DNA of 56,778 bases, counting the filler, from Bipalium vagum (lineage: Eukaryota), in assembly GCA_037834085.1 (NCBI GenBank). It is 3 parts of 3 records of this genome, joined end to end, with 100 filler letters (N's around TTAATTAATTAA, not from the genome) between each part and the next. Parts side by side here need not be neighbours in the genome. Positions count along the whole stretch, not along the records: positions 1 to 24,583 come from JBBMKC010199720.1; 2 more parts are not named here. One strand, given 5' to 3'. The notes beneath the pieces were generated by a model. It did not search any database. It had not been told where the DNA came from and saw only the letters and a list, made by a program, of their open reading frames with translations. Shown piece by piece: positions 9,796-24,683 of this stretch. How positions within the stretch are numbered: the stretch's first letter is position 1; every line of letters begins with the position of its first letter. Both the position numbers and the translations under genes were made by a program.

Positions 9796-9801
9796 TTTAT
9801 T
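9796..9801 (-). terminator. Polyadenylation signal AATAAA of the 9823-10980 gene
   Basis: AATAAA about 22 nt after the stop codon on the minus strand. The AT-rich background lowers specificity. Confidence 0.45.
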
Positions 9802-9822: not shown

Positions 9823-10980
9823 TTAAAACACTTCAATATCCAAAGATCGTTTTCCCACTTTCTTTGCAGCTGTCGTTGGTTTCTTAGTTGTTGTACCCTT
9901 CTTCGCTGTTGTGGTTTTCTTTGTCGTCACACCTTTCAGTTCAAATTCATCTTCCAAATACAATTCATCACTCAATGANNNNNNNNNNNNNNNNNNNNNN
10001 NNNNNNNNNNNNNNNNNNNNNNNNNNNNNNNNNNNNNNNNNNNNNNNNNNNNNNNNNNNNNNNNNNNNNNNNNNNNNNTTCGCTGTTGTGGTTTTCTTTG
10101 TCGTCACACCTTTCAGTTCAAATTCATCTTCCAAATACAATTCATCACTCAATGATCGTTTTCCCACTTTCTTTGCAGGTGTACTTGATATTTTCGTTGA
10201 TACGAGTTTATTTGTTGTAGTTCCTTTCTTGGTCGTAAGAGCTTTTAGTTCTAATTCATTTTCGTAAAATAAATCTTCAAAATTTTTCCTGTTTACTCTT
10301 TTAGAATCGCTATTTATTTTCTTTTCATTTGCATATTTTTGTAAAACGTTTTCTACATAGTTTTTTACATTTTCTTCTTCATAAAAAGTTTTCGATGTTG
10401 CTAAATATTTCAAGCTTTCCGATTCAATTTTCTTTTCATTCACTTCAAATTCATTCTCATCAAATTTTTTGTCCCAATAGTTATTTTCAATTCCTGATTC
10501 GCAGAAGTCTTCATAGCGAGTGTATATTCGTTTACATTTGACATTAACTTTGTTATATTTCGTGGAACAATCTTTGTCCATCTTGCGATATTCTTTCGTA
10601 CAACCTCTGCTTAACGTTTTTGAGGATATTCGACAAACCTTATCTAATCTGTCAAGTTGTTTTCCACAATTTGCTGTGACATAACCATTGGTTTTTTCAC
10701 ACTCCTTTTTGATTTTCTTTCCTGCATCATTGCAACTTTCTTTTAGGGTCTTAAACATAGTACTGCATCGTTTGTCAATGTCTAGTGCAGTTTTGTCGCA
10801 GTATTCATCTATGGCTTGGTTGGCTTGGTCGCAGTTTTTTACTTGGGAAATTAGCTCGTTGCAGTGTAATCTTTGCTTTTTGTTCAGTAACAGAGTCTCC
10901 TCCTGTTTGACCACCAAGTCTCCAATTTCGCAATCAATTAATTGTAATCCTATATTAATGATTAAGAATATAATTATCAT
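9823..10980 (-). CDS. Secreted precursor: signal peptide + 12-Cys hendecad (CX10C) helical domain + repeated acidic / Lys-Thr-rich cassettes ending in GKR
   Basis: Longest ORF in the window. Hydrophobic N-terminus MIIIFLIINIGLQLIDC. Cys at residues 40,50,61,72...160. 44-aa C-terminal repeats spanning an assembly gap (9979-10078). TATA box upstream and polyA signal downstream. Confidence 0.85.
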   Translation of the reverse strand: MIIIFLIINIGLQLIDCEIGDLVVKQEETLLLNKKQRLHCNELISQVKNCDQANQAIDEYCDKTALDIDKRCSTMFKTLKESCNDAGKKIKKECEKTNGYVTANCGKQLDRLDKVCRISSKTLSRGCTKEYRKMDKDCSTKYNKVNVKCKRIYTRYEDFCESGIENNYWDKKFDENEFEVNEKKIESESLKYLATSKTFYEEENVKNYVENVLQKYANEKKINSDSKRVNRKNFEDLFYENELELKALTTKKGTTTNKLVSTKISSTPAKKVGKRSLSDELYLEDEFELKGVTTKKTTTAXXXXXXXXXXXXXXXXXXXXXXXXXXXXXXXXXXSLSDELYLEDEFELKGVTTKKTTTAKKGTTTKKPTTAAKKVGKRSLDIEVF

Positions 10981-11004: not shown

Positions 11005-11035
11005 AAACTATCTTAGGTTCTGCTGATATTATATA
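11005..11035 (-). promoter_or_regulatory. Putative core promoter (TATATAA at 11035-11029 and Inr-like TAGTTT at 11010-11005) of the secreted gene
   Basis: TATA lies about 26 nt upstream of an Inr-like motif, itself about 25-30 nt upstream of the ATG at 10980, which has an AAAA context. Confidence 0.5.
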
Positions 11036-11979
11036 AATACAAATGTGTAGTATTGACCTTTTTACTACATCATTTTAATTTTAACAATAAATCAAAATTT
11101 TACTCTATTTGAGTCTTCAAAACGCCTCGTTTTCAATTTTAAAGCGTAGTTGATAAACTAATCGATTATTTTATTTTATATTTTATAATAATTTTATAAA
11201 TAATTAAATTTATGGTNNNNNNNNNNNNNNNNNNNNNNNNNNNNNNNNNNNNNNNNNNNNNNNNNNNNNNNNNNNNNNNNNNNNNNNNNNNNNNNNNNNN
11301 NNNNNNNNNNNNNNNNNNNNNNNNNNNNNNNNNNNNNNNNNNNNNNNNNNNNNNNNNNNNNNNNNGATATAACCAAGGTCTTAATCTTCATAATACCGTT
11401 GTTAATCATTAAAATAAATTTTCGATAAATAAAAACATTTAATTTTTAATAAAAAAATAAAAGTGAATACATTTTATGAGGCTTGCTTAAATTCTTATTT
11501 TAAGATCTAATTATTGAAATATTTTTGGTTCATTTTGTCAAAATTTTTAATAAATTAGGCAAAAATAAACCTTGGTTCTTATCATAAACTTGCACAAAAA
11601 ATATTACCACAAAGACAAATCAAATGTTTTATATTTTCATCAGCGTGAAATTAATTTTTTATATATTTTTATACATAGAAACTATTTAAAGGGAAATAAT
11701 AACTCAATTTTATTATTGGGTTGTTCAGAAAGTTTTGCACGTTTTCTGTATACTCATTTTAAAACAGCATAACTCAGCCGAATATATAAAGAATATTCTC
11801 AATTTACAAAACTTTGCGTTATAAAATATTGGTTATTTTAGGAATTCGGTTCCCCTCTTGTTTAAATTTGTCAAATTTATTTTAACTTATTAACCCTTAT
11901 TCATTTTTTTTTAATTTTACATATAAATGAAACCTATTCATTTATTCATATCATTCAAAATTGAAACTGATACAATCAC

Positions 11980-23907: not shown

Positions 23908-24583
23908 TCAAAAACATGAATTCATGCGATCCGGACACCTTATGAGAATTTCGGTGCCATCTTCTTTTATAGCGCCCCAAACCATTAAACTCTTGCCACT
24001 GAATTTTACAGTTTTTGTTATATATTTGGGACTATATCTGAATCCTTGTGGTCTGCGAACGTATTCTCTTCTTCTGGAACATAATTCTAGCCTACATTCG
24101 TCTGTAAAAATGACCTCATTCCAAAAAGAAGGAAGTAATTTGCCATACTCTCTGCACCACTTTAAGCGATTCTTGATGTGCCGCTCATTCAACAGCGGTT
24201 TCTTTGCTGCAATCCGTCCAAATAACCCATACTTCCTAAGAACACGTTTCACAGTACTTACTGAAGAAGTTTGACTTCCTTCCAATTCAAGCAATAGCTG
24301 ACGTGCTGTTTTCTTGGGATGTTCCTTTGACATACGAATTAGCCATCTTTCAGATCTTGCTGTATTTTTTGGCTTTTTATATATCTTCCAATGTTTTATG
24401 TTGTTGCAACTTAAGTTGGATACGTTGCACTGCATGCCGTGATAAATTAAGCATATTTAAAATTTTTCTTTGTGAACAACCGTCTTTCAATTTTTGAATT
24501 ACTAAGATTCTCAAATCCATCGACAACCGAGTCATATTTAACCAAAATATTTCTAAAAATATATTAGATAACAATGTGTAAAA
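23908..24583 (-). mobile_element. Tc1-like transposase, 5' two-thirds, frameshifted
   Basis: MTRLSMDLRILVIQKLKDGCSQRKI (HTH), GRIAAKKPLL, WNEVIFTDECR, SLMVWGAI motifs. Truncated before the catalytic E. Confidence 0.9.
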
Positions 24584-24683
24584 NNNNNNNNNNNNNNNNN
24601 NNNNNNNNNNNNNNNNNNNNNNNNNNNTTAATTAATTAANNNNNNNNNNNNNNNNNNNNNNNNNNNNNNNNNNNNNNNNNNNN
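24584..24683. other. Artificial scaffold spacer N44-TTAATTAATTAA-N44
   Basis: A palindromic 12-mer with stops in all six frames, centred in a 100-bp N block. Identical construct at 40342-40441. Confidence 0.9.

Follow-up and report, generated by a model that had tools for sequence, protein, structure and literature searches.

The DNA analysed here, referred to as the window, is a stretch of 56,778 nucleotides from Bipalium vagum with a G+C content of about 26% and many Tc1/mariner remnants. A single reading frame is present on its minus strand at 10980-9823, with the stop codon at 9825-9823. As assembled, this frame (9823..10980) has 385 codons, 34 of which lie over a gap of 100 N, and its sequenced parts need no intron. 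It encodes, in order, a signal-like start, 12 cysteines, a linker, a diverged cassette, a partial cassette, the gap, a full cassette, the residues SLDIEVF, and the stop. The residues quoted in the original prediction (a 44-residue unit, a diverged unit, and SLDIEVF before the stop) were all found in this one frame. The 300 gap-free codons upstream of the gap far exceed chance expectation: when the window was shuffled 30 times, stop-free frames reached at most 140 codons. A TATA-like element is found 48-59 bases 5' of the start codon (11028..11039, minus strand) and an AATAAA about 20 bases 3' of the stop (9796..9801, minus strand). Both are weak evidence in such AT-rich DNA.

A secreted type of precursor had been proposed, and a signal-peptide-like start was indeed found at residues 1-17 (10930..10980, minus strand), where the best 9-mer has a mean hydropathy of 3.3. 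Behind this start, at residues 40-160 (10501..10863, minus strand), 12 cysteines form a ladder, with a spacing of 10 and then of 11 ten times. When residues 18-176 were modelled alone with AlphaFold2 (mean pLDDT 83.5), two helices, 19-96 and 102-161, were separated by a short turn. With four aligned sequences, the turn was placed at 99-102. Each helix bears six cysteines. When these are paired in nested fashion around Gly99 (expected pairs 40-160, 50-149, 61-138, 72-127, 83-116, and 94-105), the two positions of a pair add up to 199-200. The predicted fold of the ladder is that of an antiparallel helical hairpin with its turn near Gly99, in which the six nested cysteine pairs may form disulfides. 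The model agrees with the disulfide-zipped rod that had been suggested. Residues 161-232 (10285..10500, minus strand) make up a charged linker that ends in the multibasic sequence KRVNRK, a candidate cleavage site that could separate the array of cassettes from the hairpin.

A search of 1.84 billion representative proteins returned four matches to the ladder, P0003 (E 2.7e-17), P0004 and P0005 (both about 1e-4), and P0006 (E 1.2e-4). P0004, the only named relative, is AFJ24740.1 (I1ZI86), which is hypothetical and uncharacterised and comes from Schmidtea mediterranea. P0006 is no more than an 11-residue repeat and yet equalled P0004 in score, and for this reason the sequences were shuffled in 11-residue blocks. 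The observed score was reached in none of 1000 shuffles for P0003, and in 0 of 1000 for P0004 and 7 of 1000 for P0005, the short turn block contributing to the result for these last two. The similarity of P0003-P0005 thus appears to exceed mere 11-residue periodicity. P0006 reached its score in 187 of 1000 shuffles and was dropped as a tandem-repeat mimic. All 12 ladder cysteines are invariant in the four aligned proteins. The spacing between the sixth and seventh cysteines is 11, 11, 7, and 9 across the four, and this is the sole length variation within the ladder. Since the relatives vary in length only where the turn is predicted, the hairpin is backed independently of the model.

The three relatives have hydrophobic, signal-like N-termini and the ladder in common with the precursor described here. 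Unlike it, they are 157-244 residues long with short tails, and cassettes are absent from all three. The array therefore looks like a lineage-specific addition. P0003 carries a strongly basic tail at residues 166-244 (net charge +11), and cationic sequence that extends beyond the hairpin may therefore be recurrent in the family. P0004 has a thirteenth, unpaired-looking cysteine at position 113 in the second arm, a possible site of inter-chain cross-linking. No ladder paralogue is present in the window.

Other searches were without matches. A word-indexed protein search with the 300-residue N-terminal part gave no hit among 881 candidates at E up to 0.01. A similar search among longer proteins gave none in 2451 at the same limit, which is weak evidence. 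No Pfam family reached its cut-off in the 300 sequenced N-terminal residues, and there was no match in Rfam. A PDB sequence search gave one insignificant match (E 0.88) and its profile version one more (E 0.078). Foldseek returned no hairpin match at E up to 0.001. A wide structure search found generic long helical hairpins with a best Z of 10.9, below the level that is meaningful for long helices, and neither of these two results amounts to a new fold. The protein atlas held no usable match for the ladder or for P0004, and relatives were found in 0 of 131 metagenome stretches and 0 of 5 viral contigs. The cassette had no homologue in any sequence search run, and a 39-base unit pattern had no exact match in metagenome contigs. 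In the open full-text literature, which takes in few subscription papers, neither the ladder family nor the cassette was found described, and neither AFJ24740 nor I1ZI86 was found mentioned. The available portions of bioRxiv 2025.01.09.632098, bioRxiv 179986, and PMC11430875 describe no such protein.

The cassettes follow the linker, all on the minus strand. The diverged first cassette (10156..10284) has an acidic block, a Lys/Thr/Ser block, and GKR. Behind it are the initial 77 bases (25 residues) of the first array unit (10079..10155), which are identical to 9902-9978. After the gap at 9979..10078 are the last complete 44-residue cassette (9847..9978, with its GKR at 9855-9847) and a shortened final spacer, SLDIEVF, with the stop (9823..9846). 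Of the units, just one full, one partial, and one diverged are read in the window itself, and the frame is unread where it crosses the gap. The two flanks of the gap share an exact 77-base suffix/prefix overlap. This is the only such case among the window's eight gaps, the other seven having overlaps of at most 2 bases. An exact overlap across a stretch of N is a typical trace of a short-read assembler at an unresolved repeat. The 100-N gap is an assembler join over such a repeat, here a collapsed tandem array of a 132-base unit.

By itself, the overlap might have pointed to an artefactual repeat, but public contigs speak against this. The collapsed array can be seen in the assembled contigs of a sequencing run, X1. 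One contig of 162 bases spans 9845-9976 and then returns to 9845, which makes a closed circle of 132 bases. At the junction of the circle, a full unit ends and a full unit begins. Such a junction is absent from the window and is therefore direct evidence of tandem copies beyond those in the window: unit follows unit in tandem. The only unit junction in the window, that from the diverged unit, matches 25 of the 30 bases of the circle's junction. The circle consists of 44 whole codons without a stop. It matches the last unit of the window at 130 of 132 bases, the differences being a silent change at 9898 and a change from Lys to Asn at 9901. The original prediction had the residues of the cassettes right, did not mention the 100-N gap at 9979-10078, and missed the array collapsed there, the most striking feature of all. 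What it described is real and larger than had been stated.

The number of copies can be estimated from the depth of the contigs in run X1, which was 1427.7 for the circle, 17.3 for the contig bearing the ladder, and 21.2 for a 5,228-base contig downstream. The ratio of circle to flanks corresponds to 67-83 copies, or to 61 against another contig at depth 23.5, figures that are contig depths from a single run, perhaps the window's own source, and not copy numbers as such. The unit has a G+C content of 39% and the flanks 24-30%, and the estimate drops to 36 copies if the G+C-richer unit was over-sequenced twofold. Contigs also lose rare variants. Among six sequencing runs, X1 accounts for 96% of the matching words, and contigs of X1-X4 were compared with the window, the shares of X5 and X6 being small. 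None of the six is listed as an RNA run, which says nothing about expression. The circle and the two flank contigs account for the depth in all four bins checked, with a remainder of at most 0.31, which leaves no room for another contig of notable depth running into the unit among those listed. Among the contigs listed, the depths fit a single locus. The copy number is probably 35-80, that is, several tens. The frame presumably runs unbroken through the array, which would then be about 5-11 kb long and part of a precursor of about 2,000-4,000 residues. As the circle has about 67-83 times the depth of the flanks, the amplification fits a product that is needed in quantity.

In runs X2, X3, and X4, which are from three other organisms, the unit alone was seen at 9841-9978, with the same two variant bases and without flanks. 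Its depth there is 5-6, about 0.4% of that in X1. This is likely to be cross-contamination, visible only for a sequence of high copy number, and it was not counted as conservation.

Other features of the window include a second short precursor at 48611-48288 (minus strand). It has a signal-like start, two cysteines, KR, four Trp-X6-Trp-Gly-Lys(-Arg) units, and a shorter fifth, the Trp units being on a 39-base period. The Trp-X6-Trp spacing resembles that of myoinhibitory peptide (allatostatin B). No Pfam family was found for this precursor, and none of 394 candidates scored. Remnants of Tc1/mariner transposases and a DUF659 piece are located at 23908-24456, 38206-38568, 39334-40162, and 1527-1961, all on the minus strand. 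The transposase matches were to PF01498 (E 4.9e-18), PF17906 (E 2.3e-9), and PF13551 (E 4e-6), and the DUF659 piece was below the cut-off. A scan of the short frames of the window found transposase pieces in 2 of 143 frames and nothing else. Two odd 100-base stretches at 24584-24683 and 40342-40441, each made of 44 N, 12 bases, and 44 N, are probably products of gap handling.

The full cassette consists of a 15-residue acidic and hydrophobic block, a 26-residue Lys/Thr block, and GKR. The acidic block has a net charge of -5 and ends in ELK. Six of its 15 residues are large and hydrophobic, and several of these are kept in the diverged unit. The cationic block has 8 Lys and 10 Thr (38% Thr), a net charge of +8, and a pI of 10.8. 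Its hydrophobic fraction is 0.19 and its helical moment 0.14, which means that it is not amphipathic. The unit contains no His, and its only Arg is in the KR, which occurs once per unit, always with Gly before it and Ser after it (G-K-R-Ser-Leu). The cassette region is predicted by AlphaFold2 to be disordered (pLDDT below 50 at residues 237-300).

As had been predicted, GKR ends every sequenced unit. The two types of unit sequenced both have it, and the circle contig shows no change in it, the comparison being one between two paralogous units. The diverged and full units are identical at only 23 of 44 residues, which include the whole AKKVGKR end and E-ELK. AKKVGKR is identical although the two units differ by 21 non-synonymous codons in 44. 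By simple arithmetic, the chance of keeping three given residues at 52% identity is about 0.14, which is not rare.

In prohormone chemistry, the chain is cut after KR, the basic residues are trimmed, and an amide is formed from the Gly. Because GKR is the only KR in each unit, a cut there would yield an amide of 41 residues with both the acidic and the cationic block, not necessarily the 26-residue peptide. Judged from sequence, this product would have a mass of about 4.5 kDa unmodified. It has KR or RK on both sides, and the features of multi-copy convertase precursors are found for it, namely a hydrophobic start, flanking basic sites, and a Gly as amide donor. The 26-mer, with a calculated mass of about 2.7 kDa, has a single Lys upstream (ELK-G). 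Trimming at this Lys to free it is possible but not indicated. The release of peptides at GKR, as first proposed, is consistent with one GKR per unit; the proposed split into spacer and 26-mer depends on the single Lys, with no KR site. There are also three to four internal KK pairs, further possible cut sites that could be cleaved unless shielded by O-glycans.

The precursor may be one for convertase-processed bulk secretion, used in mucus, rhabdoids, or adhesive, a reading that is held tentatively at a probability of roughly 0.45. The secreted polyprotein would be cut by convertases at each Gly-Lys-Arg, which would give tens of near-identical 41-residue peptides, and trimming and amidation at Gly would follow. 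The hairpin could be freed by a cut at KRVNRK and may serve as a stiff scaffold or as a sorting domain. The acidic half of each peptide would mask the cationic half, so that many copies could be packed densely in a granule. The Thr residues of the released peptides would probably be O-glycosylated. Once released, the charge blocks may condense or cross-link with polyanionic mucus. A role as bulk material is suggested because one short, charge-blocked, Thr-rich unit has probably been multiplied tens of times, and the products would likely make up most of what a gland or the epidermis secretes. Planarians possess PC2 and amidated peptides, and their marginal adhesive and cement glands express some of the prohormones, according to the available text of PMC2953531. 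Planarian rhabdoids are described as granules that are glycosylated and form a mucous network when they swell, and lineage-specific secreted proteins are presumed to make them up (PMC12579931, in part). A more specific form of the proposal is that the undescribed, planarian-type disulfide-zipped hairpin carries about 70 self-neutralising diblock peptide amides, that convertases free each of these with its acidic half in place, and that the prohormone machinery in this way mass-produces charge-driven, self-assembling blocks for mucus or glue and not a hormone or a lytic peptide. In this full form, it is doubtful. To our knowledge, about 70 copies would exceed the numbers for peptide precursors. 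The copy number reaches about 20-36 in the RFamide precursors of cnidarians and molluscs and about 46 in the antifreeze glycopeptide polyproteins of fish.

The same sequence could also be read as that of a secreted giant block polyampholyte, in which acidic blocks alternate with Lys/Thr blocks, that is never cleaved, is anchored by the hairpin, and works in the manner of a mucin or of the cohesive or glue proteins of flatworms, with GKR a mere part of the repeat. The predicted disorder of the cassette region agrees with this, and the length inferred here resembles that of flatworm adhesives. These adhesives are giant, Lys-rich, repetitive, predicted to be O-glycosylated, and fragmented in assemblies, and in the available text of PMC9229212 the known ones with Lys-rich repeats are described as whole giant proteins. 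An uncut protein does not account for exactly one G-K-R per unit, placed at the boundary from cationic to acidic, followed by Ser-Leu, and holding the unit's only Arg. Processing is also favoured by the multibasic run immediately ahead of the array and by the truncated spacer with which the protein ends, and no vWD, C8, TIL, TSP, or C-lectin domain reached Pfam cut-offs in the sequenced part. Such a glue is regarded as rather unlikely. A role in defence is distinctly unlikely. Here the acidic pro-piece would be removed and the 26-residue cationic amide would act as an antimicrobial or deterrent by binding as a polycation, not by forming pores. The charge and pI of the 26-mer and its amide donor would suit this, as would the anionic linkers between cationic peptides and the truncated last linker, which match cupiennin precursors (PMC7889660, available part). 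Planarian mucus is cytotoxic, and peptides have been hypothesised as the agent (PMC11430875, available part). The border between spacer and peptide is a single Lys, unlike the linkers of cupiennins, which are bounded by Arg (PMC7889660). The hydrophobic spacer residues kept in the diverged unit exceed what a disposable linker needs, and the copies look near-identical, where spider precursors are diversified. The original analogy to antimicrobial and toxin precursors turned out to be weak, given the low hydrophobic fraction and helical moment of the block and Thr at 10 of its 26 residues.

Two further readings are less probable still. The circle of high depth could be a satellite or a decayed array, with most copies elsewhere or interrupted by stops, and the gene itself could have two or three cassettes or be unexpressed. 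The unread frame across the gap, the loss of rare variants from contigs, and the use of depth from one run leave some room for this. The circle, however, has 44 stop-free codons and is the last coding unit at all but two bases, and among the contigs listed, the depths bring just the two flank contigs into contact with it. The 300 upstream codons show no break, and the cysteines of the ladder do not vary among the aligned proteins. A satellite is thus very improbable. A precursor of a neuropeptide or pheromone, with an amidated product that would act through a receptor, is scarcely to be expected. GKR sites and multiple copies are hallmarks of prohormones, and another precursor of such build is present in the window at 48611-48288. 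The products here would be long and of low complexity and lack an aromatic C-terminal motif, and signalling would need neither a 120-residue cysteine hairpin nor tens of copies. The planarian peptides in Table 3 of PMC2953531 are short and rich in aromatic and aliphatic residues.

Comparison with known systems helps to place the precursor. Linear cytolytic peptides are amphipathic and have a hydrophobic face, which is absent from the 26-mer. Alternating anionic and cationic blocks of the cupiennin kind are present (net -5/+8), and Arg-bounded linkers are absent, the acidic block ending in ELK. As described in the available part of PMC7889660, the cupiennin precursors of spiders (complex linear-peptide precursors, transcript families A-D) share with the protein here the signal peptide, an anionic pro-region, the cationic peptides separated by anionic linkers, and the truncated last linker. 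Their linkers start and end in Arg (iPQM/PQM), and they yield diversified cytolytic peptides, somewhat more than 10 per precursor (PMC7889660). In the precursor here, by contrast, the sites are GKR and a single Lys, the cationic block is rich in Thr and not amphipathic, the copies, probably tens of them, look nearly identical, and a cysteine hairpin precedes the units. The flatworm adhesives ap1, ap2, and ap3 of Macrostomum, Minona, and Theama are likewise secreted, Lys-rich, repetitive, prone to O-glycosylation, and collapsed by short-read assembly, and their giant size would be shared if the length estimated here is right (PMC9229212, available part). Tmed-ap2 has 7,228 residues with 22.5% Lys, Tmed-ap3 has 3,700 residues, and Mile-ap3 has GRK repeats (PMC9229212). 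In contrast, the sequenced part of the precursor here has no vWD, C8, TIL, TSP, C-lectin, or EGF domain and no GRKHS low-complexity region. Alternating acidic blocks with one amidation and cleavage motif per repeat are not described for ap1, ap2, or ap3 in the available text of PMC9229212. By the features tested, the protein thus appears to be neither of the cupiennin type nor a member of ap1-3.

Multi-copy prohormones, which are processed by PC2, carboxypeptidase, and amidating enzymes, share the signal peptide and the repeated units ending in G-K-R (PMC2953531, available part). The precursor here differs from them in its low-complexity products of 26-41 residues, its very high inferred copy number, and its fused folded domain. 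The PROG family of planarians, compared by description only, also consists of lineage-specific secreted proteins. These have a coiled coil together with internal repeats and occur in epidermal granules, PROG-2-5 are about 15 kDa, and cysteine is not mentioned in the available PROG text (bioRxiv 10.1101/179986). The layout of a multi-copy convertase precursor is known. The fusion of this layout to an undescribed hairpin family and the hidden cassette array appear to be new.

Short-read assembly can conceal a coding array of perhaps 5-11 kb in a gap of 100 N, and because of this, genes of the array type are easily missed. Because one protein of the hairpin family is from S. mediterranea, the family is experimentally accessible in a model planarian, and the 41-residue diblock amide is a simple synthetic target for work on self-assembly. 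If the proposed reading is true, processing of the hormone type would be used for bulk structural secretion. The precursor would then be a candidate component of planarian mucus, rhabdoids, or adhesive, the composition of which is largely unknown.
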